Positions 3,241-15,845 of a stretch of DNA of 18,059 nt are shown here, one piece after another. The stretch lies in UHGV virus genome UHGV-0072595; one strand, given 5' to 3'. The position numbers were made by a program, and so were the translations under genes. This DNA is from a virus. The notes beneath the pieces were generated by a model, which was not told where the DNA came from, searched no databases, and saw nothing but the letters and a program-made list of their open reading frames with translations. The first letter of the stretch is position 1. The number at the start of each line of letters is the position of its first letter.

Positions 3241-3358
3241 GGAATGTTGATCGCTGATTTCATCGCTTTATTTGCTTCAAGCCACATTTTGGAATCACCA
3301 ATAAATCTGGCTATTACTGCTTTGTTCTGTGCAGCACGAAGCATCTGGTGATTAATGG

Positions 3359-3493
3359 CTATTTCATTGCGCATAACGCCTCCAGTTGTTTCTTTGCTGC
3401 TCTGATTAATTGTTTAATTCGGCGTGATAATTCAGATTCGTGCGGGTAGAAAGCGGACATGACGCCGCTACCCGCGAGCTGAAAGTGCATCAT
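3359..3493 (-). CDS. cIII-like small protein (about 44 aa)
   Basis: Track ORF 3359..3544 trimmed to ATG 3493 with AAGGAG SD at 6 nt; position (between ea10 and the recombination genes) and a short basic helical segment (ESELSRRIKQLIRAAKK) reminiscent of cIII; does not match lambda cIII closely. Confidence 0.45.
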   Translation of the reverse strand: MMHFQLAGSGVMSAFYPHESELSRRIKQLIRAAKKQLEALCAMK

Positions 3494-3568
3494 GGGTAAC
3501 TCCTTATATTTGATTGCATAACGAAAATGCCTCTCGTGAAGCATTATTGGTATGCGGTAAAGCCGCGC

Positions 3569-3937
3569 TCAGGCGGCTTTGATAGTCATATCATCTGAAT
3601 CAAATATTCCTGATGTATCGATATCGGTAATTCTTATTCCTTCGCTACCATCCATTGGAGGCCATCCTTCCTGACCATTTCCATCATTCCAGTCGAACTC
3701 ACACACAACACCATATGCATTTAAGTCGCTTGAAATTGCTATAAGCAGAGCATGTTGCGCCAGCATGATTAATACAGCATTTAATACAGCGCCGTGTTTA
3801 TTGAGTCGGTATTCAGAGTCTGACCAGAAATTATTAATCTGGTGAAGTTTTTCCTCTGTCATTACGTCATGGTCGATTTCAATTTCTATTGATGCTTTCC
3901 AGTCGTAATCAATGATGTATTTTTTGATGTTTGACAT
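3569..3937 (-). CDS. ea10: Ea10 protein (lambda early-left, 122 aa)
   Basis: Track ORF; sequence and length match my recollection of lambda Ea10; located left of ral as in lambda. Confidence 0.8.
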   Translation of the reverse strand: MSNIKKYIIDYDWKASIEIEIDHDVMTEEKLHQINNFWSDSEYRLNKHGAVLNAVLIMLAQHALLIAISSDLNAYGVVCEFDWNDGNGQEGWPPMDGSEGIRITDIDTSGIFDSDDMTIKAA

Positions 3938-5229: not shown

Positions 5230-5664
5230 TTATTCTTGTTCTCTGGTCAAATTATATAGTTGGAAAACAAGGATGCATATATGAATGAACGATGCAGAGG
5301 CAATGCCGATGGCGATAGTGGGTATCATGTAGCCGCTTATGCTGGAAAGAAGCAATAACCCGCAGAAAAACAAAGCTCCAAGCTCAACAAAACTAAGGGC
5401 ATAGACAATAACTACCGATGTCATATACCCATACTCTCTAATCTTGGCCAGTCGGCGCGTTCTGCTTCCGATTAGAAACGTCAAGGCAGCAATCAGGATT
5501 GCAATCATGGTTCCTGCATATGATGACAATGTCGCCCCAAGACCATCTCTATGAGCTGAAAAAGAAACACCAGGAATGTAGTGGCGGAAAAGGAGATAGC
5601 AAATGCTTACGATAACGTAAGGAATTATTACTATGTAAACACCAGGCATGATTCTGTTCCGCAT
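5230..5664 (-). CDS. rexB: RexB (membrane component of the Rex abortive-infection/exclusion system, 144 aa)
   Basis: Track ORF; multi-pass hydrophobic protein of the right size immediately downstream of rexA as in lambda. Confidence 0.9.
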   Translation of the reverse strand: MRNRIMPGVYIVIIPYVIVSICYLLFRHYIPGVSFSAHRDGLGATLSSYAGTMIAILIAALTFLIGSRTRRLAKIREYGYMTSVVIVYALSFVELGALFFCGLLLLSSISGYMIPTIAIGIASASFIHICILVFQLYNLTREQE

Positions 5665-5679
5665 AATTACTCCTGATAA

Positions 5680-6519
5680 TTAATCCTTAACTTTGCCCAC
5701 CTGCCTTTTAAAACATTCCAGTATATCACTTTTCATTCTTGCGTAGCAATATGCCATCTCTTCAGCTATCTCAGCATTGGTGACCTTGTTCAGAGGCGCT
5801 GAGAGATGGCCTTTTTCTGATAGATAATGTTCTGTTAAAATATCTCCGGCCTCATCTTTTGCCCGCAGGCTAATGTCTGAAAATTGAGGTGACGGGTTAA
5901 AAATAATATCCTTGGCAACCTTTTTTATATCCCTTTTAAATTTTGGCTTAATGACTATATCCAATGAGTCAAAAAGCTCCCCTTCAATATCTGTTGCCCC
6001 TAAGACCTTTAATATATCGCCAAATACAGGTAGCTTGGCTTCTACCTTCACCGTTGTTCGGCCGATGAAATGCATATGCATAACATCGTCTTTGGTGGTT
6101 CCCCTCATCAGTGGCTCTATCTGAACGCGCTCTCCACTGCTTAATGACATTCCTTTCCCGATTAAAAAATCTGTCAGATCGGATGTGGTCGGCCCGAAAA
6201 CAGTTCTGGCAAAACCAATGGTGTCGCCTTCAACAAACAAAAAAGATGGGAATCCCAATGATTCGTCATCTGCGAGGCTGTTCTTAATATCTTCAACTGA
6301 AGCTTTAGAGCGATTTATCTTCTGAACCAGACTCTTGTCATTTGTTTTGGTAAAGAGAAAAGTTTTTCCATCGATTTTATGAATATACAAATAATTGGAG
6401 CCAACCTGCAGGTGATGATTATCAGCCAGCAGAGAATTAAGGAAAACAGACAGGTTTATTGAGCGCTTATCTTTCCCTTTATTTTTGCTGCGGTAAGTCG
6501 CATAAAAACCATTCTTCAT
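5680..6519 (-). CDS. rexA: RexA (sensor component of the Rex system, 279 aa)
   Basis: Track ORF MKNGFYATYRSKNKGKDKRSINLSVFLNSLLADNHHLQ...; matches lambda RexA as I recall it; cotranscribed with cI. Confidence 0.9.
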   Translation of the reverse strand: MKNGFYATYRSKNKGKDKRSINLSVFLNSLLADNHHLQVGSNYLYIHKIDGKTFLFTKTNDKSLVQKINRSKASVEDIKNSLADDESLGFPSFLFVEGDTIGFARTVFGPTTSDLTDFLIGKGMSLSSGERVQIEPLMRGTTKDDVMHMHFIGRTTVKVEAKLPVFGDILKVLGATDIEGELFDSLDIVIKPKFKRDIKKVAKDIIFNPSPQFSDISLRAKDEAGDILTEHYLSEKGHLSAPLNKVTNAEIAEEMAYCYARMKSDILECFKRQVGKVKD

Positions 6520-6631
6520 AATTCAATCCATTTACTATGTTATGTTCTGAGGGGAGTGAAAATTCCCCTAATTCGATGAAGATTCTTGCTCAATTGTTAT
6601 CAGCTATGCGCCGACCAGAACACCTTGCCGA

Positions 6632-7348
<717 letters not shown>

Positions 7349-8077: not shown

Positions 8078-8224
8078 ATGACAAAACAACTCAGTCCTTA
8101 CCAGGACAAAATTCACAAACACATACTACGTGATCGCTTCCTGTCCAGCTTCAAGCAGCCTGGTCGATTCCGGGCTGAGTTGGAAAAAGTGAAGCTGATG
8201 CAGAAGGAGAAAGGTCATGAGTAA
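8078..8224 (+). CDS. Small basic hypothetical protein (48 aa) between cII and the O-like gene
   Basis: Hand translation [48 protein letters not shown]; AGGAG SD 6 nt upstream; stop overlaps the O-like start region. Confidence 0.4.
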
Positions 8225-9077
8225 TCTTGCAACCGTAACACATTTAAGGCCTTCACAACGGCCTGTGGAGCGTCGTGTGGCAGAAGTTGAAGATGGTTAT
8301 ACCCGTCTTGCAAATGCCCTGTATGAAGAGCTTATCGGCGCAGATTTAACGAAAAATCAGAGCAAGGTTGCCCACGCCATATGCCGTAAAACATACGGCT
8401 ACGGTAAAAAGATGGATCGCATCTCTGATAGTCAGTTAGCTCAAATTACCAGGCTGCCAAGACAGAAGGTAAACAAGGCCAAGAATGAGCTTATCGCGAT
8501 GAAGGTTATCCTTCGCGAAGGCCAGCAAATCGGGCCTAACAAGAACATCGAGGAATGGCAAATCGAAGGGTGTCACTACTCTGGTGATAATGTCACTGCA
8601 TTGGTGACAAAAAGTGTCACCAAAACGGTGACAGCGCTGTCACCAAAACAGGGACACACAAAAGAAACTATTACAAAAGAAAAAAGAAATAATAAAAACA
8701 CTATGTCCGAAAGTGTTCGGACGGAGTGTGAAAAATCACATGACCGTCACGAAGAAACCGACAAGGCATTCGAGGAAATATTCTGGTGTGCAGGCATGCG
8801 GAAAGCCGGGAAGAAAAACGCAGCTTCGGCATTCAGAACACAGTTCAGGGAATGGCGTAAAACTACCAGGGGGACGGCAAGCGAGTTTGCCACGATGCTG
8901 GCAGAAGACATCGCATGCAGGAATGGTAAGCAGTTCGGATTCGACAGGTTGTTACCATCGAGCTACCTGAACGGTCAACGCTGGAACGACGAAAAGCCAG
9001 AAACCATTCAACCACAATCCAAACCATCATCCGCAATCACCGTATCGAAAACTGGCTACGTGTTTTTCGACAGGTGA
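8217..9077 (+). CDS. Replication initiator, lambda O-like N-terminal iteron-binding domain with a divergent C-terminal domain (286 aa)
   Basis: Track ORF; N-terminus shares the O-family pattern DDGYxRL...ADLTKxQxKV...RKTYGxxKxMDRIxDSQL...GPNKNIxEW with lambda O; gene contains its own iteron/AT-rich origin. Confidence 0.85.
8582..8700. repeat. Replication origin inside the O-like gene: three to four iterons built on GGTGACA/TGTCACC inverted half-sites (about 8582-8650) followed by an A-rich region
   Basis: Direct reading: ctGGTGAtaaTGTCACtgca, ttGGTGACAaaaagTGTCACCaaaac, GGTGACAgcgcTGTCACCaaaac, then acaaaagaaactattacaaaagaaaaaagaaataataaaaac. Confidence 0.7.
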
Positions 9078-9080
9078 ACC

Positions 9081-9188
9081 ATGAAATCAAAAATCAAATC
9101 GCTACTGGTCGCTGGTTATAACCACGGCTGGTTAAGTATTTCGTTTGTCGATTTCTGGTTTAAAAATCTCAATCTGAGGGAATCATGA
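9081..9188 (+). CDS. Possible small coupled ORF (35 aa) between the O-like gene and the primase-helicase
   Basis: Hand translation MKSKIKSLLVAGYNHGWLSISFVDFWFKNLNLRES; start 4 nt after the O stop; stop overlaps the primase-helicase ATG (ATGA). Confidence 0.3.
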   Translation: MKSKIKSLLVAGYNHGWLSISFVDFWFKNLNLRES

Positions 9189-11065
9189 CGCCAAGTGAAC
9201 TTAGCGACCTGCTTTGGGCGCAGGTTGACAGGGTGGCTCCGCACCTGTTGCCAAACGGCAAGAAAGAGGGGCATGAGTGGGTTGCCGGTAACATCAACGG
9301 TGACAAGGGAAACAGCCTTAAGGTCAACCTTAGCGGCAAGAAAAAATGGGCTGATTTCGCTGAGGGAGACGGCGGTGACATGCTTGATTTGTGGATGGCA
9401 TGTCGTGGAATTAACCTGCATCAGGCTATGCAGGAAGCGAAAGCATTTCTCGGTATCAAGGATGACGATCACCATTTCGATGCCAGACGTGAGAAAAAAT
9501 TCTCCAGACCTGATCGCAAGAAAATCGCCCGCTACGTTACCAGAACAGAATCCCATCTTGAGTACCTGCAATCGCGTGGCATATCGCCAGAAATCGTAAA
9601 GCGCTACGAGGTTGTCAGCGGCAAGGTGTGGAATGGAGAGCGGGAACTGGATGCTCTGGTGATTCCGTACAAACGCGATGGTGAGTTGTTGCAGGTCAAG
9701 CGAATCAGCACTGAGCGCCCGGACGGGAAGAAAGTCATTATGGCAGAAGGTGATTGCGAACCTTGTCTGTTCGGATGGCAGGCTCTGGACGCTGGCGTGA
9801 GGGCGGTTGTACTTTGCGAAGGCGAAATTGATTGTATGAGCTATGCGCAATACGGCATCTCGGCGTTATCCGTACCGTTTGGTGGAGGGAAAGGCGCTAA
9901 GCAACAGTGGATTGAGTTTGAGTATCACAACCTCGACAGGTTTGAGGAAATATTCATCTCGATGGACGTTGATGATGTTGGTCGTGAAGCCGCAAGGGAA
10001 ATCGCAAGCCGACTCGGTGAACATCGTTGCCGTCTTGTTACTCTGCCGTACAAAGACATCAACGAATGCCTGATGAACGGTGTTACCGAGGATGCAATCT
10101 GGCAGTACATCGGCACGGCATCCTACTTTGATCCTGAAGAACTCTACAGCGCGCGAGAGTTTTACCAGGACACTATCAACGCTTTCTACGGCAAGCAGCA
10201 GTATCTGTTTAATCCACCGTGGGAATCTCTGGCAGATAAATTCCAGTTCCGTGAGGCCGAGTTGACGCTGGTCAATGGTGTGAACGGTCACGGAAAAACG
10301 GAGGTTGTCGGGCATATGGCACTTGAGGCAATGCGTCAGGGTGTGAAGACGTGCATCGCGTCACTTGAGCTGAAGCCTGGTATTCTCCTTAAGCGCCTTA
10401 CCCGTCAGGCAACGTGCTGCAAGATGCCGCCAGTGCTGGAAATTGACTCTGCATTTAAATTTTATGACGAAAGACTTTGGGTGTTTGGCCTGACCGGAAC
10501 GGCGAAAGCCGACAGGCTGATCGAAATATTCGACTACGCTCGCCGCCGATACGGGATCCAGTTATTCATCATCGACAGCCTGATGAAATGTGGCATAGGC
10601 GACGATGACTATAACGGGCAGAAGGCGTTTGTTGACTCGATTTGCGACTTCAAAAACAAAACAAACTCCCACGTCATTCTCGTTACTCACTCGCGAAAAG
10701 GAGACAGCGAAGAAAAACCAACCGGGAAAATGGACGTAAAAGGCTCTGGAGCGATAACAGACCTGACAGACAACCTTTTCATCATCTGGCGTAACAAGGC
10801 TCGCGAGAGAGCGTTACAGAGAGTTCAGAGTGGTGAAAAGATGTCAGAGAAGGACGAACAGGTACTGGCGTCTCCGGCATCTGTTTTGATGCTTGAAAAA
10901 CAACGAAACGGCGAAGGTTGGGAAGGTGGTGTCCCGTTGTTCCTTGACGAGCAATCGCACCAGTTCCTGCAACTTGAATCAGGATCGCCATATAGCTACA
11001 TCGCCAATATGCCGAAATCGGAATATGACGAGGCGTGGCGACAGGAAAACGTGACGGAGTATTAA
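9185..11065 (+). CDS. Bifunctional DNA primase-helicase (N-terminal primase/Toprim-like region, C-terminal DnaB/RecA-like helicase), replaces lambda P (626 aa)
   Basis: Track ORF; acidic Toprim-like motifs (CEGEIDCMS, MDVDDVGRE), Walker A NGVNGHGKTE and Walker B-like LFIIDSLMK in the C-terminal half. Confidence 0.8.
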   Translation: MTPSELSDLLWAQVDRVAPHLLPNGKKEGHEWVAGNINGDKGNSLKVNLSGKKKWADFAEGDGGDMLDLWMACRGINLHQAMQEAKAFLGIKDDDHHFDARREKKFSRPDRKKIARYVTRTESHLEYLQSRGISPEIVKRYEVVSGKVWNGERELDALVIPYKRDGELLQVKRISTERPDGKKVIMAEGDCEPCLFGWQALDAGVRAVVLCEGEIDCMSYAQYGISALSVPFGGGKGAKQQWIEFEYHNLDRFEEIFISMDVDDVGREAAREIASRLGEHRCRLVTLPYKDINECLMNGVTEDAIWQYIGTASYFDPEELYSAREFYQDTINAFYGKQQYLFNPPWESLADKFQFREAELTLVNGVNGHGKTEVVGHMALEAMRQGVKTCIASLELKPGILLKRLTRQATCCKMPPVLEIDSAFKFYDERLWVFGLTGTAKADRLIEIFDYARRRYGIQLFIIDSLMKCGIGDDDYNGQKAFVDSICDFKNKTNSHVILVTHSRKGDSEEKPTGKMDVKGSGAITDLTDNLFIIWRNKARERALQRVQSGEKMSEKDEQVLASPASVLMLEKQRNGEGWEGGVPLFLDEQSHQFLQLESGSPYSYIANMPKSEYDEAWRQENVTEY

Positions 11066-11094: not shown

Positions 11095-11126
11095 AGGCCT
11101 GCTGGTAATCGCAGGCCTTTTTATTT
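11095..11126 (+). terminator. Intrinsic terminator after the replication genes (8-bp perfect stem CAGGCCTGC/GCAGGCCT plus U-tract), tR2-like position
   Basis: Direct reading caggcctgctggtaatcgcaggcctttttattt 30 nt after the primase-helicase stop. Confidence 0.65.
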
Positions 11127-11688: not shown

Positions 11689-11853
11689 ATGAGCGCATAC
11701 GAAGAAATCATGTTAGCCCTGCGATTCTTTTTCGGTGTGGAAGAAGATGAAAACGTAAATGAGATTATCGGGCAAGACCATGACCCGATAGGGACTATTG
11801 CAGCTGCACTTGACGATTACAGGAGTGTAAATGGTGAGGAAACTAACGTTTGA
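11689..11853 (+). CDS. Small acidic hypothetical protein (54 aa), 3' end overlaps the ninB start by 23 nt
   Basis: Hand translation MSAYEEIMLALRFFFGVEEDENVNEIIGQDHDPIGTIAAALDDYRSVNGEETNV; AAGGAG SD at 5 nt. Confidence 0.4.
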   Translation: MSAYEEIMLALRFFFGVEEDENVNEIIGQDHDPIGTIAAALDDYRSVNGEETNV

Positions 11854-12274
11854 ACTAAGAAGCCCCATCCATCAGCAGAACGCCATTCAAGCTATCCAGC
11901 AAATTCTTCCAGACCCAACCAAACCAATCGTAGTAACCATTCAGGAACGCAACCGCAGCTTAGACCAAAACAGGAAGCTATGGGCCTGCTTAGGTGACGT
12001 CTCTCGTCAGGTTGAATGGCATGGTCGCTGGCTGGATGCAGAAAGCTGGAAGTGTGTGTTTACCGCAGCATTAAAGCAGCAGGATGTTGTTCCTAACCTT
12101 GCCGGGAATGGCTTTGTGGTAATAGGCCAGTCAACCAGCAGGATGCGTGTAAGCGAATTTGCGGAGCTATTAGAGCTTATACAGGCATTCGGTACAGAGC
12201 GTGGCGTTAAGTGGTCAGACGAAGCGAGACTGGCTCTGGAGTGGAAAGCGAGATGGGGAGATCGGGCTGCATGA
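11831..12274 (+). CDS. ninB: NinB (Orf family recombination mediator, 147 aa)
   Basis: Track ORF MVRKLTFELRSPIHQQNAIQAIQQILPDPTKPIVVTIQERNRSLDQNRKLWACLGDVSRQVEWHGRWLDAESWK...; matches lambda NinB as I recall it. Confidence 0.9.
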   Translation: MVRKLTFELRSPIHQQNAIQAIQQILPDPTKPIVVTIQERNRSLDQNRKLWACLGDVSRQVEWHGRWLDAESWKCVFTAALKQQDVVPNLAGNGFVVIGQSTSRMRVSEFAELLELIQAFGTERGVKWSDEARLALEWKARWGDRAA

Positions 12275-12798
12275 CTATCAAATCAAATACGCCAGCACAC
12301 GACAAGGACTGCTGGCAAACGCCGCTTTGGCTTTTTGATGCACTGGATATTGAGTTTGGATTCTGGCTGGATTCGGCAGCGAGCGACAAAAATGCTCTGT
12401 GTGCTCACTGGCTAACTGAGGCCGACGACGCGCTCAATTCTGAGTGGGTAAGCCACGGTGCAATCTGGAATAACCCACCGTACAGCAATATCAGGCCGTG
12501 GGTGGAAAAAGCCGCTGAGCAGTGCATACAACAGCGACAGACGGTAGTTATGCTTGTGCCAGAGGATATGTCAGTCGGATGGTTCAGCAAGGCTCTGGAG
12601 AGTGTCGACGAAGTTCGCATCATCACTGATGGACGGATTAATTTTATCGAACCATCGACAGGGCTGGAGAAGAAGGGAAACAGCAAAGGCTCCATGCTGC
12701 TGATTTGGCGACCGTTCATCAGTCCTCGACGGATGTTTACTACCGTATCCAAAGCGGCATTGATGGCGATCGGGCAGGGCGTCAGGAGGGCGGCATGA
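12271..12798 (+). CDS. Phage DNA N6-adenine methyltransferase (Dam family; motif WNNPPYSN), about 175 aa
   Basis: Track ORF 12211..12798 trimmed to ATG 12271 (ATGA overlap with ninB stop); NPPY catalytic motif of N6-adenine/N4-cytosine MTases; small size and no adjacent restriction enzyme. Confidence 0.8.
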
Positions 12799-12971: not shown

Positions 12972-13393
12972 CAATGGATTATTCACAGTTAAGTGATTTT
13001 GAAATTAACAGACGAGTATGTGAGGCTTTAGATATGGAGGAGCATTTCTTCATACCTGATGACGAAGCAGACTTCGATTCTGAGATCCCCACTGACGAAA
13101 GAGGTCCTATTTGGCAGACGCAAAAAAGGGATATTAATGGCTTCCGTTCTTCAAACGGGAATTGCTTCAATCCTTGCAATAATCCTGAATACGCGTGGCC
13201 AATTATCACTGAAAGCAAAATCAGCACTATGTGGATGACAGCGGAAAAAGAATGGTGCGCATGGTCAGGAGGTGATTTAGAGGAAGGTTGTTGGGAATGG
13301 GAAAATATTCCTGGCTACTACTTCTGTGGCGAATCGCCTCTCCGCGCCGCCATGATTGTCTTTCTCATGATGCAGGACGCTAATAATGCTTAG
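12968..13393 (+). CDS. NinX-position protein, Cys/Trp-rich, unknown function (about 141 aa)
   Basis: Track ORF 12932..13393 trimmed to ATG 12968 (ATGA overlap with ninE stop); sits between ninE and ninF where P22-type nin regions carry ninX. Confidence 0.5.
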
Positions 13394-13562
13394 TCCATCC
13401 CAATCTCTTCAATACCAGAAAGAAAGCGTCGAGCGAGCTTTAACGTGCGCTAACTGCGGTCAGAAGCTGCATGTGCTGGAAGTTCACGTGTGTGAGCACT
13501 GCTGCGCAGAACTGATGAGCGATCCGAATAGCTCAATGTACGAGGAAGAAGACGATGAATGA
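13386..13562 (+). CDS. ninF: NinF (58 aa, Cys-rich)
   Basis: Hand translation [58 protein letters not shown]; matches lambda NinF as I recall it. Confidence 0.8.
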   Translation: MLSPSQSLQYQKESVERALTCANCGQKLHVLEVHVCEHCCAELMSDPNSSMYEEEDDE

Positions 13563-14277
13563 GTTAATAAATGGCAATGCCATCAAAATGACAAGCATTG
13601 AAATCGCTGAGTTGGTGGGTAAGCGTCATGACAATGTGAAACGTACCATCGAAACGCTGGCTAAAAATGGTGTTATCCGGCTTCCTCAAATTGAGGTTTC
13701 CGAAAGAATCAATAACTTAGGGTTCAATGTTCAGTACGAGCATTACGTCTTCGAGGGCGAACAAGGTAAGCGAGACAGTATTGTCGTTGTTGCCCAGTTG
13801 TCGCCAGAGTTCACCGCTCGTCTTGTTGACCGTTGGCGAGAGCTTGAAGAAACTGCGGTTAATATCCCCAAAACGCTACCAGAAGCATTGCGCCTTGCTG
13901 CTGATCTTGCTGAGCAGAAAATGCAACTGGAAAACCAGCTCGCAATTGCCGCACCTAAAGTTGAGTTTGCCGATCGCGTTGGCGAGGCCAGTGGAATTTT
14001 GATTGGAAACTTTGCAAAGGTTGTTGGTATTGGTCCGAACAAACTGTTTGCGTGGATGCGCGATCACAAAATCCTTATTGCTTCAGGTTCCCGGCGCAAT
14101 GTGCCAATGCAGGAATATATGGATCGCGGCTATTTCGCAGTGAAAGAAACAGCGGTCAACACAAATCACGGAATACAGATATCGTTCACCACAAAAATCA
14201 CCGGGCGTGGTCAACAGTGGCTGACCAGAAAGCTGCTCGATAACGGAATGCTGAAAGTAACAGGGGAGGCTGCTTAA
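13555..14277 (+). CDS. Roi/Rha-like phage regulatory protein with antirepressor (KilA-C-like) C-terminal region (240 aa)
   Basis: Track ORF; N-terminal MTSIEIAELVGKRHDNVKR motif typical of lambdoid Roi/Rha proteins; assignment from memory of family patterns. Confidence 0.6.
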   Translation: MNELINGNAIKMTSIEIAELVGKRHDNVKRTIETLAKNGVIRLPQIEVSERINNLGFNVQYEHYVFEGEQGKRDSIVVVAQLSPEFTARLVDRWRELEETAVNIPKTLPEALRLAADLAEQKMQLENQLAIAAPKVEFADRVGEASGILIGNFAKVVGIGPNKLFAWMRDHKILIASGSRRNVPMQEYMDRGYFAVKETAVNTNHGIQISFTTKITGRGQQWLTRKLLDNGMLKVTGEAA

Positions 14278-14567
14278 TGGCTAACCTACGCAAAGAAGCG
14301 CGCGGCAGAGAATGCCAGGTACGTATTTACGGCGTATGCAATGGTAATCCTGAAACTACAGTTCTGGCACATTACCGGATGGCTGGAATTTGCGGAACTG
14401 GAATGAAGCCTGACGACCTGATCGGCGCATGGGCTTGTAGCGCGTGTCACGATGAAATCGACCGACGCACAATGATTCTCGACAACAAAGACGCCAGACT
14501 TTACCACCTCGAAGGCGTGATCAGGACGCAGGCGATACTGCTGAAGGAGGGGAAGATTAAGCCATGA
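14277..14567 (+). CDS. YbcO-like (DUF1364) Cys/His-rich putative zinc-binding nuclease (96 aa)
   Basis: Track ORF; conserved CxVR...C...HxR...C...CSACH arrangement; immediately upstream of rusA as in the E. coli DLP12 prophage. Confidence 0.6.
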   Translation: MANLRKEARGRECQVRIYGVCNGNPETTVLAHYRMAGICGTGMKPDDLIGAWACSACHDEIDRRTMILDNKDARLYHLEGVIRTQAILLKEGKIKP

Positions 14568-14926
14568 ACGAATATCAGTTTGTGCTTCCATACCCGCCGT
14601 CGGTGAACACCTACTGGCGAAGACGGGGAAGCCAATACTACATCAGCGATAAAGGCCAGAAATACCGAAAAGACGTTCAGCAAATCATCCGCCAACTCAA
14701 GTTAGACATTTTCACCAAATCACGACTCCGCATCAAAGTCATCGCAGACGTTCCAGACTCCCGCCGCCGCGACCTCGATAACATCCTGAAAGGTTTACTC
14801 GATTCCCTTATCCACGCCGGATTTGCGGAAGACGACGAGCAATTCGATGACATTCGCGTAATTCGTGGTGTGAAAGTACCAGGCGGACGGCTTGGAATAA
14901 AAATCACCGAACTGGAGAACGCATGA
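14564..14926 (+). CDS. rusA: RusA Holliday-junction resolvase (120 aa)
   Basis: Track ORF; LPYPPSVNTYW... N-terminus and DxRRRDLDN catalytic motif characteristic of RusA. Confidence 0.9.
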   Translation: MNEYQFVLPYPPSVNTYWRRRGSQYYISDKGQKYRKDVQQIIRQLKLDIFTKSRLRIKVIADVPDSRRRDLDNILKGLLDSLIHAGFAEDDEQFDDIRVIRGVKVPGGRLGIKITELENA

Positions 14927-15111
14927 ACGCCACAATTCAAACGATACCAGAGCTTCTTATCCAGACACGAGGCAATCAGACCGAAGTGGCTAGGATGCTT
15001 TCCTGCGCAAGAGGAACAGTGCTCAAGTACAACCGAGACAGCAAAGGCGATCGTCACGTAATAGTTAACGGCGTCCTGATGGTCAAACAGGGAAAGAGGG
15101 GAAGACGATGA
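14923..15111 (+). CDS. ninH: NinH-like protein (62 aa)
   Basis: Track ORF; ...GNQTEVARMLSCARGTVLKY... matches the NinH HTH-like core; ATGA overlaps on both sides. Confidence 0.75.
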   Translation: MNATIQTIPELLIQTRGNQTEVARMLSCARGTVLKYNRDSKGDRHVIVNGVLMVKQGKRGRR

Positions 15112-15626
15112 GCATAAGAGAACTAAACCTCACCAAAGAACAGCATGAGTGGCTGAATGGCTGGCTTGAACTGTGGGGCGCATGGGTTTATTCAGGTCGT
15201 CTGGAAAAGCGCATGAGCAGCGTAATAGCGAAGTTCATGGAGAGCGTAGAGCCGGGAAGAGTTATGACAAGGCCAATGTGTAATGATGATGATGGAATGT
15301 TGATTTCTCAGGTCGTCGATTCCGTCATGTACATTGACAAGAAAGCCTTTGGCATCCTCCTCAGCTACTACGCTCATGGTTCATCTAAGCGAGCAATTGC
15401 ATCCTACTATCACGCGACTGCAAAGCCACGCAAGATGTGTGGACGTGGTGGCGAGGGATGGAGAAAACCTTCACTGGCAACCTGTAGAAACGAAATTGAC
15501 GACATCCTGAAAGCGTCATTATTTGTTTTGTACCAACCAATGCAAAATGCTTTCAAAATGCGTAAACGTGTTGAGAAAGTTAAGCATGTTGCTGTTAAAA
15601 ACCTTGACATGCAATTAGCCATTTAG
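15108..15626 (+). CDS. Q: Late antiterminator Q (non-lambda type, 172 aa)
   Basis: Track ORF; last gene of the nin operon, immediately upstream of a pR'-like promoter, terminator hairpin and the lysis cassette; pattern WGAW...P.C.DDD resembles phage 21/82-type Q proteins (from memory). Confidence 0.7.
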   Translation: MSIRELNLTKEQHEWLNGWLELWGAWVYSGRLEKRMSSVIAKFMESVEPGRVMTRPMCNDDDGMLISQVVDSVMYIDKKAFGILLSYYAHGSSKRAIASYYHATAKPRKMCGRGGEGWRKPSLATCRNEIDDILKASLFVLYQPMQNAFKMRKRVEKVKHVAVKNLDMQLAI

Positions 15627-15633
15627 CCATAAT
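15604..15633 (+). promoter_or_regulatory. Candidate late promoter pR' (-35 TTGACA 15604-15609, 18-bp spacer, -10 CATAAT 15628-15633), overlapping the Q stop
   Basis: Hexamers read directly; position relative to Q and downstream terminator fits the lambdoid late-control architecture. Confidence 0.5.
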
Positions 15634-15689: not shown

Positions 15690-15764
15690 GGGTCAGTCGT
15701 ATAAAGGTCATTACGGAAGGCTGTTAACCTTCTTATCGTGGTTCGAGTCCACGCTGTCCCGCCA
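15690..15764 (+). tRNA. tRNA-Asn(GUU)-like gene with encoded CCA; atypical (one U-U mismatch in the acceptor stem, weak D-stem)
   Basis: Manual fold: acceptor GGGTCAG/CTGTCCC, anticodon stem GAAGG/CCTTC with loop CTGTTAA, T-arm CGTGG-TTCGAGT-CCACG, discriminator G, CCA. Confidence 0.5.
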
Positions 15765-15769
15765 AATAT

Positions 15770-15845
15770 GCTGGTTTAGCTCCAATGGTAGAGCAGTCGC
15801 CTTGTAAGCGAATGGGTAGCGGTTCAAGTCCGTTAACCAGCACCA
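15770..15845 (+). tRNA. tRNA-Thr(UGU) gene with encoded CCA
   Basis: Manual fold: perfect 7-bp acceptor GCTGGTT/AACCAGC, D-arm GCTC-CAATGGTA-GAGC, anticodon loop CTTGTAA, T-arm AGCGG-TTCAAGT-CCGTT, discriminator A, CCA. Confidence 0.65.

Follow-up and report, generated by a model that had tools for sequence, protein, structure and literature searches.

The roi-ybcO-rusA cassette of a lambdoid phage genome: a ybcO-rusA pair probably replacing NinG/Rap in function, and roi as a facultative mosaic gene

The 18,059-nucleotide stretch of the UHGV virus genome UHGV-0072595 that was analysed in this work (referred to as the window) carries, between ninF and ninH, three overlapping genes (viz. roi, a ybcO-like gene and rusA), which represent the standard, already known roi-ybcO(hkbD)-rusA cassette of lambdoid phages of the HK022/HK97/HK620/CUS-3 type. 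The conserved evolutionary unit within this cassette is the pair formed by ybcO and rusA, and not the trio inclusive of roi. Our interpretation of the cassette, which we regard as probable, is that the ybcO-rusA pair is a functional replacement of NinG/Rap and that roi, a mosaic insert, is separate from it and facultative. The finding in large part confirms the textbook mosaicism of lambdoid phages, where alternative junction-nuclease cassettes share a single slot of the nin region. The features of the block and of its surroundings are as follows.

13386..13562, + strand: ninF, flanking the module on the left (Pfam NinF, E=1.8e-12; 88% identity with lambda NinF)
[quoted passage not shown]
13588..13851, + strand: Phage_pRha-coding segment of roi, aa 12-99 (Pfam PF09669, E=6.5e-9)
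13617..13745, + strand: hypervariable mosaic patch in roi, approximately aa 22-64 (DNA alignment with HK022)
13707..13719, + strand: match to the IHF consensus, AATCAATAACTTA, in roi, coinciding with the (R)INNL codons (pattern match with WATCAANNNNTTR)
13930..14238, + strand: ANT/KilAC-coding segment of roi, aa 126-228 (Pfam PF03374, E=1.3e-32)
14277..14567, + strand: ybcO-like gene (hkbD in HK620), 96 aa, Cys/His-rich putative nuclease of the HNH type (Pfam YbcO PF07102, E=2.8e-44)
14564..14926, + strand: rusA, 120 aa, predicted Holliday-junction resolvase (Pfam RusA PF05866, E=1.1e-16)
14923..15111, + strand: ninH, flanking the module on the right (Pfam Phage_NinH, E=3.3e-24; 54% identity with lambda NinH)
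15108..15626, + strand: Q antiterminator, closing the delayed-early (nin) operon in which the block lies (Pfam Phage_antitermQ, E=1.1e-25)

All of the Pfam domain calls in the block far exceed chance, and the identities which the first-pass annotation had assigned to its genes (a Roi/Rha-like regulator with an antirepressor-type C-terminus, a YbcO-like DUF1364 protein and RusA) are borne out by them, as are the three + strand open reading frames with the TAATG and ATGA overlaps that it had described. The overlap between roi and ybcO consists of TAATG at 14275-14279, where the last A of the roi stop codon TAA is also the A of the ybcO ATG, and that between ybcO and rusA consists of ATGA at 14564-14567. 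The chain extends beyond the block on both sides: upstream, ninF and roi share the 8 nt ATGAATGA, and downstream, rusA and ninH overlap by ATGA at 14923-14926. Each start codon is preceded, within the preceding gene, by a purine-rich stretch resembling a Shine-Dalgarno sequence (viz. GAGGAAG, GGGGAGG and GAAGGAGGGG). The block is located in the delayed-early nin operon, which is driven by pR; neither a promoter-like nor a convincing terminator-like site was detected on the + strand from about 11200 to about 15260, and a promoter-like TTGACA-18-CATAAT is present at 15604-15633, where pR' is expected. The antisense ORFs within the block gave no family match, the sole Rfam matches were two tRNAs lying outside it, and the base composition over the block is unremarkable.

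Because the gene order in lambda is NinF-NinG-NinH, and the flanks of the block, which fills the space between them, are a NinF and a NinH (88% and 54% identical to those of lambda, respectively), the earlier statement that the block lies where lambda carries ninG is exact. No match to NinG (PF05766) was found in the window, and of 160 YbcO loci, 159 have no NinG at a distance of up to 3 kb; in the loci examined, NinG and YbcO-RusA are mutually exclusive. NinG is a nuclease of the His-Me-finger type that nicks D-loops (PMC5714182, group 24), and it has been described that orf is always found upstream of either rap or rusA (PMC4118853). The NinG/Rap of lambda and the NinG of P22 have in common with the window pair both the ninF-ninH slot and the presumed task of removing branched DNA. 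However, lambda NinG/Rap, which is one protein of 204 aa where the window has two small ones, shows no detectable similarity to YbcO or RusA. As the comparison of YbcO with lambda NinG by hhalign found no similarity (probability 0.4%), the replacement of NinG is to be understood as positional and functional, and not as homologous. If this interpretation is correct, then RusA would cut the Holliday junctions in the recombination intermediates of the phage, and YbcO, judging from its fold, conserved residues and neighbourhood, would nick or cut other branched intermediates, e.g. D-loops and three-strand junctions. The cutting of recombination or replication intermediates by YbcO would precede or accompany the junction resolution, and the action of both proteins would leave the concatemeric phage DNA unbranched for packaging. 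The broad activity of Rap on branched DNA would, in this manner, be split by the pair between two proteins.

At the DNA level, the block matches the annotated roi, hkbD and rus genes of HK620, CUS-3 and HK75 with 97-98% identity and those of HK022 with 94% identity, and the identities to the HK022 proteins are 88% for Roi, 95% for the YbcO-like protein and 98% for RusA. In HK620 (AF335538), CUS-3 (CP000711), HK75, HK022 (AF069308) and HK97, the gene trio, its order, its overlaps and its ninF/ninH flanks are all the same as in the window, and the sole real difference from the HK022 block lies at aa 22-64 of roi, where about 130 nt form a mosaic patch that changes the presumed DNA-recognition region. 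Of the 5426 complete E. coli genomes, 520 contain at least 80% of the block. A pair consisting of YbcO followed by RusA, as seen in the window, is also present in the cryptic prophage DLP12 of E. coli K-12 and in phage 82. The known structures of YbcO (3g27) and RusA (1q8r/2h8c) are of the DLP12/phage 82 alleles, which are diverged from those of the window (70.5% identity for YbcO and 43.7% for RusA). In DLP12, the gene upstream of ybcO is ninE and not roi, and in the phage records whose YbcO is about 70% identical to that of the window the neighbour is listed as NinE.

The window RusA scores 62 bits against its Pfam family (cut-off 22.8) and aligns with PDB 1q8r over residues 1-119 in a gapless manner (E=2.8e-26). 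The catalytic residues D70, D72, K76, D90 and D91 are all kept at matching positions, and in the Arg-rich DNA-binding stretch 66-69 the residues R67-69 are kept, the only replacement being that of R66 by Ser (roles of the residues taken from PMC1636454). By these conserved residues, the protein is a predicted Mg2+-dependent, dimeric resolvase cutting Holliday junctions, as shown for its homologues, among which only the alleles of K-12 and phage 82 have been demonstrated to cleave four-way junctions symmetrically as a dimer.

The YbcO-like protein belongs to the YbcO family with a Pfam score of 149.5 bits (cut-off 29.9), and it is 70.5% identical to the protein of PDB 3g27 (E=2.5e-39). In an alignment of 16 sequences, which was drawn on the best 120 homologues (72-99% identical), the residues C13, C21, H32, C39, C54, C57, H58, D59 and D62 are invariant, the 16 homologues being 72-96% identical. 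The His on the beta-hairpin, assigned as catalytic in PMC4999995, and the Cys ligands of the treble-clef zinc site are conserved in the YbcO-like protein; YbcO has been classed as a His-Me finger (PMC5714182, PMC4999995; group 7 for DUF1364) and predicted to be a nuclease (PMC4999995). Judging from its conserved residues, the YbcO-like protein is a predicted zinc-stabilised protein of the His-Me-finger type, made from the same message as RusA by way of the ATGA overlap. An AlphaFold model based on the 16-sequence alignment had a pLDDT of 55.7 and almost no strands and was discarded as too poor, so that the fold is assigned here from what has been published on 3g27. The crystal structure of DUF1364/YbcO dates from 2009, and a literature search revealed no published activity assay for any member of this family. 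Among proteins with a characterised structure, the relative reported to be nearest to YbcO is the RecA-dependent HNH nuclease Ref of phage P1 (PDB 3plw; FFAS score -24.7, PMC4999995), a phage His-Me finger which cuts within recombination intermediates. However, Ref has a long helical insertion in its finger as well as an N-terminal segment (PMC5714182), whereas YbcO, with about 96 aa, stands alone. When PDB sequences were searched for Ref with a HMMER profile of YbcO, 3g27 was the only match.

The pairing of YbcO with a resolvase was examined in 76 YbcO loci from a collection containing one genome per species, which cover Enterobacterales, Pasteurellales and Pseudomonadales. The gene downstream of YbcO encodes RusA in 54 of these loci; in 9 others, all from the Pseudomonas group, RusA is replaced by an unrelated nuclease, VRR-NUC. 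Among close relatives, RusA is found directly downstream of YbcO in 77 of 80 cases. The downstream gene starts at stop-3, i.e. with a 4-nt overlap, in 61 of the 76 loci. On the upstream side the neighbours fall into 17 Pfam families, the commonest of which accounts for only 9/76, and a Roi-like gene occupies this position in 2 of the 76 diverse loci, being absent in 74, and in about half of the near-identical relatives. The three-gene block is present as the first-pass annotation described it, but it is not a single conserved unit. Near-identical YbcO genes also adjoin RusA alleles whose identity to that of the window is only 47-48%. In about 12 of the 76 loci the gene directly downstream is not a recognisable resolvase: it encodes a Q antiterminator, a small terminase subunit or an HNH_3 protein, or it gives no family match.

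The idea that YbcO travels with RusA is supported by these counts, and it is not new: RusA, Q and antirepressor genes have been listed as neighbours of DUF1364/DUF968 and a role in recombination has been proposed (PMC5714182), and the sister family DUF968 is known in fusions to RusA, Erf and Rad52 (PMC4118853). For YbcO as a partner of RusA, the co-occurrence holds, but the term cannot mean that RusA needs YbcO, because RusA is able to resolve junctions and to suppress ruv mutants on its own (PMC1636454, PMC12844172). A search for YbcO-RusA fusions among 1418 family representatives yielded a lone hybrid, P0130, which is a deletion product of 160 aa, and the other long members of the YbcO family are start-site or frameshift artefacts rather than fusions.

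If YbcO were unrelated to RusA, then their adjacency would only reflect synteny passed on by descent, YbcO itself being an HNH protein of the selfish or packaging type. Small HNH proteins assist terminases in HK97-like phages, which counts in favour of a packaging-type role. Further, phage records with RusA-like genes are about twice as frequent as those with YbcO (379 vs 176), RusA functions by itself both in vitro and in vivo (PMC1636454; PMC12844172), and a host regulator of K-12 binds between ybcO and rusA and separately activates rusA-ylcG (PMC12844172). The HusR boxes of K-12 were looked for between ybcO and rusA of the window and are absent there. However, the adjacency persists over three orders of Gammaproteobacteria, and it outlasts both the exchange of RusA alleles beside a near-identical YbcO and the swap of RusA for the unrelated VRR-NUC, while the upstream neighbour is essentially random and the stop/start overlap is retained in most pairs. 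In addition, the YbcO-like gene of HK97, gp66, is located in the nin region between roi and gp67, and not beside the terminase genes. In view of these observations we consider it unlikely that YbcO is unrelated to RusA. A more specific form of the functional link is that YbcO is a dedicated accessory nuclease, which is made with RusA or VRR-NUC through translational coupling and cuts branched substrates, the pair together corresponding to Rap, and that the KilAC domain of Roi might modulate RecA in the manner of AriS; this combination we put forward tentatively, as a possibility that the results do not yet favour. The near-obligatory and coupled position of YbcO before a resolvase, which is kept even where this is VRR-NUC, provides a sharp and cheaply addressed biochemical hypothesis for YbcO. 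An accessory nuclease of this kind would be produced in fixed proportion with the resolvase (with VRR-NUC in the Pseudomonas phages) and would act on D-loops and three-strand junctions, which lie beyond the reach of resolvases specific for four-way junctions.

The third gene, roi, encodes a protein homologous over its full length to HK022 Roi (88% over 240/241 aa), which occupies the matching genomic position between ninF and the ybcO-like gene; the C-terminal halves of the two proteins are about 99% identical. In the records of HK620, CUS-3 and HK022 the gene is annotated as roi or as DNA-binding protein. Roi of HK022 reportedly binds DNA and has a link to IHF (Clerget and Boccard, 1996). The evidence points to the window Roi being an IHF-linked DNA-binding regulator as well. 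It would be a two-domain protein composed of a variable DNA-binding domain of the Rha type and a KilAC domain, and, by its homology to HK022 Roi, it would bind DNA within its own gene, beside a candidate IHF site, with host IHF tempering its activity; a classical antirepressor switch it would not be.

The antirepressor-type C-terminus that was noted earlier for Roi is confirmed by the domain search (ANT/KilAC, PF03374, E=1.3e-32), and databases label this domain as antirepressor. By tblastn, the KilAC domain of Roi is found in 1092 phage records and is 64.5% identical to the 'ant' gene product of the P1-like phage RCS47, and Ant1/2 of P1/P7, which contain the ANT/KilAC domain, are cited as true antirepressors (PMC9043618). 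If Roi were a protein of this kind, it would, after the induction of its own phage, inactivate the repressors of co-resident prophages. However, the nearest studied protein, HK022 Roi, is annotated as a DNA-binding protein and reported to have a growth phenotype linked to IHF, and it is not described as an antirepressor; the title of the 1996 Roi study, as cited in PMC3430580, refers to the inhibition of phage growth in IHF-deficient hosts. The archetypal Ant of P22 consists only of P22_AR_N and P22_AR_C, and the match of Roi to it covers just 37 aa (E=0.001, pairwise BLASTP). Further, the KilAC domain, when tested alone, acted as an inhibitor of SOS or of cell division (PMC9043618; bioRxiv 10.1101/2024.01.05.574328), and its exact function is called unclear in PMC9043618. 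Lastly, roi lacks a promoter of its own, with no promoter-like site on the + strand between 11000 and 15264, and lies translationally chained deep within the pR operon, whereas known antirepressor genes belong to separately regulated operons, e.g. P22 ant under Arc/Mnt. The proposal in the first-pass annotation that Roi acts on heterologous repressors is not supported on these grounds (DNA binding reported for HK022 Roi, the different domains of P22 Ant, the experimental ties of ANT/KilAC to SOS inhibition and to a cell-division block, and the absence of its own promoter), and an antirepressor role appears very improbable to us. For Roi-type genes, the 'antirepressor' label that they bear in thousands of genomes probably misleads.

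It could also be considered that Roi has a dual function similar to that of AriS from Listeria, where the variable Rha domain would regulate the phage's genes and the KilAC domain would act on the host by dampening RecA/SOS or by blocking cell division. A domain combination described in the literature is exactly the architecture of Roi; the KilAC domain by itself inhibits SOS (PMC9043618), CreP, which consists of KilAC only, blocks cell division (bioRxiv 10.1101/2024.01.05.574328), and the KilA domain of Gp07 from phi11 is reported as growth-inhibitory (PMC5944126). Also, among the Roi genes upstream of YbcO, at least six alleles of the N-terminal patch are exchanged, in contrast to a KilAC half that hardly varies. 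However, the proteins that were tested are from Firmicutes or Acinetobacter and just about 30-45% identical to the Roi domain, and the phenotype of HK022 Roi concerns phage growth in IHF mutants and not SOS, so that for Roi a dual function of this type is doubtful.

For Roi as an IHF-linked regulator, the IHF consensus within its gene is of particular relevance. The pattern WATCAANNNNTTR has just one match in the 18-kb window, at 13707-13719 in roi. The consensus is found at the equivalent position in HK022 roi, despite the diverged patch, and likewise in P22 rha, in 80 of 80 Rha-like loci and in five of the six Roi patch alleles. None of its fixed bases shows a synonymous change, and 43 of 48 other codons for invariant residues vary. 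A part of this conservation is due to the protein, since the consensus overlaps with the conserved peptide motif I-N-x-L-G; nevertheless, the evidence points to a candidate IHF site in the roi coding sequence that is kept by selection at the DNA level. The N-terminal region of Roi shares the Phage_pRha domain with Rha of P22 and phi80, where the IHF consensus lies on the same codons (BLASTP of Roi vs P22 Rha, E=1e-7 over aa 14-56). Both Rha and Roi inhibit phage growth in IHF-deficient hosts, according to PMC4936722 for Rha and to the title cited in PMC3430580 for Roi. However, P22 Rha has an ORF11CD3 domain at its C-terminus and not KilAC, and its gene is located in the late region of P22 and not in the nin operon. 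Within the mosaic patch (alignment columns 78-207) the window DNA is far more diverged from HK022 than in the remaining gene, which is nearly identical, and because the recognition patches differ, the target sequence of the window Roi may differ from that of HK022 Roi. Repeats and palindromes sought in roi as a Roi operator gave short matches at chance level only. The patch allele carried by roi of the window is the commonest one among the sampled viral contigs.

The three genes that the first-pass annotation placed where lambda carries ninG, together with the domains of the first product, are as follows.

13555-14277, + strand: roi, ORF for protein 1 (240 aa)
Roi aa 12-99: Phage_pRha domain (Pfam, E=6.5e-9)
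Roi aa 126-228: ANT/KilAC domain (Pfam, E=1.3e-32)
14277-14567, + strand: ybcO-like gene, ORF for protein 2 (96 aa; Pfam YbcO PF07102, E=2.8e-44)
14564-14926, + strand: rusA, ORF for protein 3 (120 aa; Pfam RusA, E=1.1e-16)

All three ORFs lie at the coordinates first given for them, and their Roi-type, YbcO-like and RusA identities are borne out by Pfam, with which the PHROGs assignments agree. As read in the sequence, the genes are joined by TAATG at 14275-14279 (roi/ybcO) and ATGA at 14564-14567 (ybcO/rusA), and the flanking junctions overlap likewise (ninF/roi by 8 nt; rusA/ninH by ATGA at 14923-14926). The local gene order is NinB, Dam, NinE, NinX, NinF, Roi, YbcO, RusA, NinH, Q; thus, whereas lambda has NinF-NinG-NinH and P22 has NinF-NinG-NinY-NinH at the corresponding place, the window has NinF-Roi-YbcO-RusA-NinH. 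Based on these gene orders and on the homologous flanking proteins (identity to the lambda proteins is 88% for NinF and 54% for NinH), it is clear that the block occupies exactly the ninG slot. RusA resolves Holliday junctions, and Rap/NinG, which occupies the same slot, is a nuclease of the His-Me-finger type that acts on D-loops and junctions. A terminator-like hairpin (11095-11118) lies ahead of the nin genes and a pR'-like promoter is found at 15604-15633; no convincing promoter or terminator signal was detected between these two elements. Antisense ORFs within the block matched no family, nor was any Rfam family found in it.

The block is already known and is widespread; its annotation goes back over two decades, and hundreds of genomes contain it. 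In megablast searches, the 1.9-kb region matched 412 phage records, with DNA identity of 97-98% to CUS-3, Kapi1, HK75 and HK620, in which the annotated names are roi (DNA-binding protein Roi), hkbD and rus, and 94% to HK022, whose Roi, YbcO-like and RusA proteins are 88%, 95% and 98% identical to those described here. Matches were also present in 2258 of 5426 complete E. coli genomes, with at least 80% of the region in 520. Across its full length the window is an early region of mosaic, lambdoid type, comprising Erf, RexA/RexB, a CI-type repressor, O protein, primase-helicase, the nin genes, Q, a pair of tRNAs and a lysis cassette, and no phage record covering more than half of it was found.

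The claim that YbcO travels with RusA was examined in 80 YbcO loci from a one-genome-per-species collection (67-98% identity; Enterobacterales, Pasteurellales and Pseudomonadales), from which the ORFs directly downstream and upstream of YbcO were extracted and 76 loci scanned, the upstream gene serving as an internal control for plain synteny.

Gene directly downstream of YbcO in the scanned loci
RusA: 54/76 loci
VRR-NUC: 9/76 loci, all Pseudomonas and close relatives
Q-type antiterminator: about 4/76 (Phage_antitermQ 3, Antiterm 1; 2 also match DUF1133)
HNH_3: 1/76 loci
Small terminase subunit: 1/76 loci

One further downstream protein, broken by a contig end, was RusA-like in appearance, and the start of the downstream gene falls 3 nt ahead of the YbcO stop in 61 of the 76 loci, which is the ATGA overlap of the window. 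The upstream position was variable, with 17 Pfam families (DUF1367 being the commonest, 9/76), and a Roi-like gene (ANT plus Rha) was found there in only two of these diverse loci. Among close relatives (80 viral contigs, YbcO at least 96% identical), RusA was next in 77, about nine of which carry an allele only 47-48% identical to the window RusA; Roi lies upstream in 37-39 of the same contigs. NinG was not found within 3 kb in 159 of 160 YbcO loci. In phage records there are 379 RusA-like and 176 YbcO-like genes, and RusA apparently occurs without YbcO in Acinetobacter and Ralstonia phages. The claimed association is therefore upheld: what is conserved is YbcO with a junction resolvase directly after it, and this link outlasts both the exchange of resolvase alleles and the substitution of a non-homologous resolvase. 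Dependence runs in one direction, YbcO being rare in the absence of a resolvase and RusA being frequent in the absence of YbcO. Together, these observations support a functional link. The VRR-NUC genes (L062, L063, L066, L070, L071, L072, L080, L081 and L082 among the comparison loci, at about 3280-3790 in each) often retain the stop/start overlap with YbcO and look like a non-homologous replacement of the resolvase partner. In DUF968, the sister family of DUF1364 (YbcO), fusions with RusA, Erf and Rad52 are known (PMC4118853).

The window RusA gives a gap-free alignment with its E. coli counterpart (1q8r; E=2.8e-26, 43.7% identity) and retains D70, D72, K76, D90, D91 and R67-R69, which are critical for cleavage and DNA binding (PMC1636454). 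This Holliday-junction resolvase is a dimer that acts alone, and its expression suppresses ruv mutants (PMC1636454; PMC12844172); RusA catalysis does not require YbcO. The YbcO-like protein shares 70.5% identity with YbcO of prophage 82/DLP12, for which there is a crystal structure (3g27). When 16 homologues from Enterobacterales and Pseudomonas were aligned, no variation was seen at C13, C21, H32, C39, C54, C57, H58, D59 or D62; the AlphaFold model of the YbcO-like protein was of too low quality for use. Structure surveys describe 3g27 as a treble-clef/His-Me finger with the catalytic histidine present, closest to the RecA-dependent nuclease P1 Ref and predicted to be a nuclease (PMC4999995), and place DUF1364 and DUF968 in His-Me group 7, with a proposed role in recombination and with RusA, Q and antirepressor genes as neighbours (PMC5714182). 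A literature search found no assay for any DUF1364 family member. YbcO would be translated together with the resolvase as an active nuclease with structure specificity, and may widen the range of branched DNA that the phage clears before packaging. The further proposal that DUF1364 proteins serve phage junction resolvases as dedicated accessory nucleases is tentative and rather doubtful. The family has 1418 representatives (50% clustering, E<=1e-3), and nearly all of the best-scoring 150 are stand-alone proteins of about 95-105 aa. The sole YbcO-RusA hybrid, P0130 (160 aa; YbcO residues 3-71 joined to RusA profile positions 18-123), was rejected as a functional fusion and is most likely a deletion derivative.

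It had also been suggested that Roi could be an antirepressor acting on heterologous repressors of other prophages. The antirepressor-type C-terminus was indeed recovered by domain search as a strong ANT/KilAC match, which has counterparts in 1092 phage records and is 64.5% identical to the 'ant' gene of a P1-like phage, and this domain is carried by P1/P7 Ant1/2 (PMC9043618). However, the domains of P22 Ant are unrelated to those of Roi. The function of the KilAC domain is called unclear in a study in which that of Listeria AriS was shown to inhibit the SOS response (PMC9043618), and cell division is blocked by a protein consisting of KilAC only (bioRxiv 10.1101/2024.01.05.574328). The N-terminal partner of KilAC alternates between AntA/B, Bro-N and pRha (PMC9043618); Roi itself has the pRha plus KilAC architecture. 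Further, roi lacks a promoter of its own and forms part of the chained genes of the pR operon, so that Roi can be made only once the phage's own repressor has been inactivated. An effect on heterologous repressors is unlikely: no evidence supports it, and the nearest experimental precedent points in another direction.

Differences between Roi and HK022 Roi are concentrated in aa 22-64; in the DNA alignment of the two genes (A1), columns 78-207 are heavily diverged and the remainder is nearly identical. Where a Roi gene lies upstream of YbcO, the patch comes in at least six alleles. The sole match in the window to the IHF consensus WATCAANNNNTTR lies within it, which by itself proves nothing, since the chance expectation in 18 kb is 1.23. 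However, the homologous position of HK022 roi also matches the consensus, P22 rha carries the identical 13-mer on homologous codons, and it is present in 80/80 Rha-like viral loci and 5/6 patch alleles.

IHF consensus copies: window 13707-13719; comparison loci L001 1788-1800, L163 39835-39847, and L164-L243

In roi and rha genes alike, the consensus overlies the codons for K/R-I-N-x-L-G, a conserved motif of the Phage_pRha domain. Among Rha-like genes, 39 distinct nucleotide sequences were compared; synonymous variation is seen in 43 of the 48 invariant-residue codon columns, and elsewhere Ile and Leu columns each show 3 to 5 different codons, whereas Lys AAA, Ile ATC and Leu TTA, which hold the fixed bases, show zero variation and the four 'N' positions vary freely. 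The consensus is therefore under constraint at the DNA level, which suggests that a putative IHF site inside the coding sequence is maintained by selection. Such selection fits what Clerget and Boccard reportedly found in 1996 (cited in PMC3430580), namely that Roi and IHF bind inside roi and that Roi blocks phage growth in IHF-deficient hosts. It likewise fits the block to phage growth in IHF-deficient hosts ascribed to Rha (PMC4936722). Roi would then be an independent DNA-binding regulator tempered by IHF, whose recognition region and target may move as one cassette. In four viral contigs (L112-type loci), the roi allele upstream of YbcO lacks both I-N-x-L-G and the consensus (...KVENKQTISPNKF...) and, judged from this, may be a natural IHF-independent variant.

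In the window more broadly, one phage combines a full recombination kit of non-lambda parts, namely Erf (2360-2995, - strand), NinB/Orf (11831-12274) and YbcO plus RusA (14277-14926); some YbcO relatives are reported as fusions with Erf or Rad52 domains (PMC5714182). A gene for a Dam-type N6-adenine methyltransferase (12211-12798) lies between ninB and ninE, and since its longest ORF, with a GTG start, overlaps the ninB end by about 60 nt, the true start is probably further downstream. After a lambda-O-type initiator (8217-9077), the place of the lambda P-type helicase loader is taken by a 626-aa Toprim plus DnaB-like helicase fusion (primase-helicase; 9185-11065). The genes rexB, rexA and a CI-type repressor (HTH_3 plus S24 peptidase) at 5230-7345 (- strand) form a lambda-like immunity and exclusion region, and tRNA-Asn(GTT) (15690-15764) and tRNA-Thr(TGT) (15770-15845) are located just 3' of Q and the pR'-like promoter, before the lysis genes.
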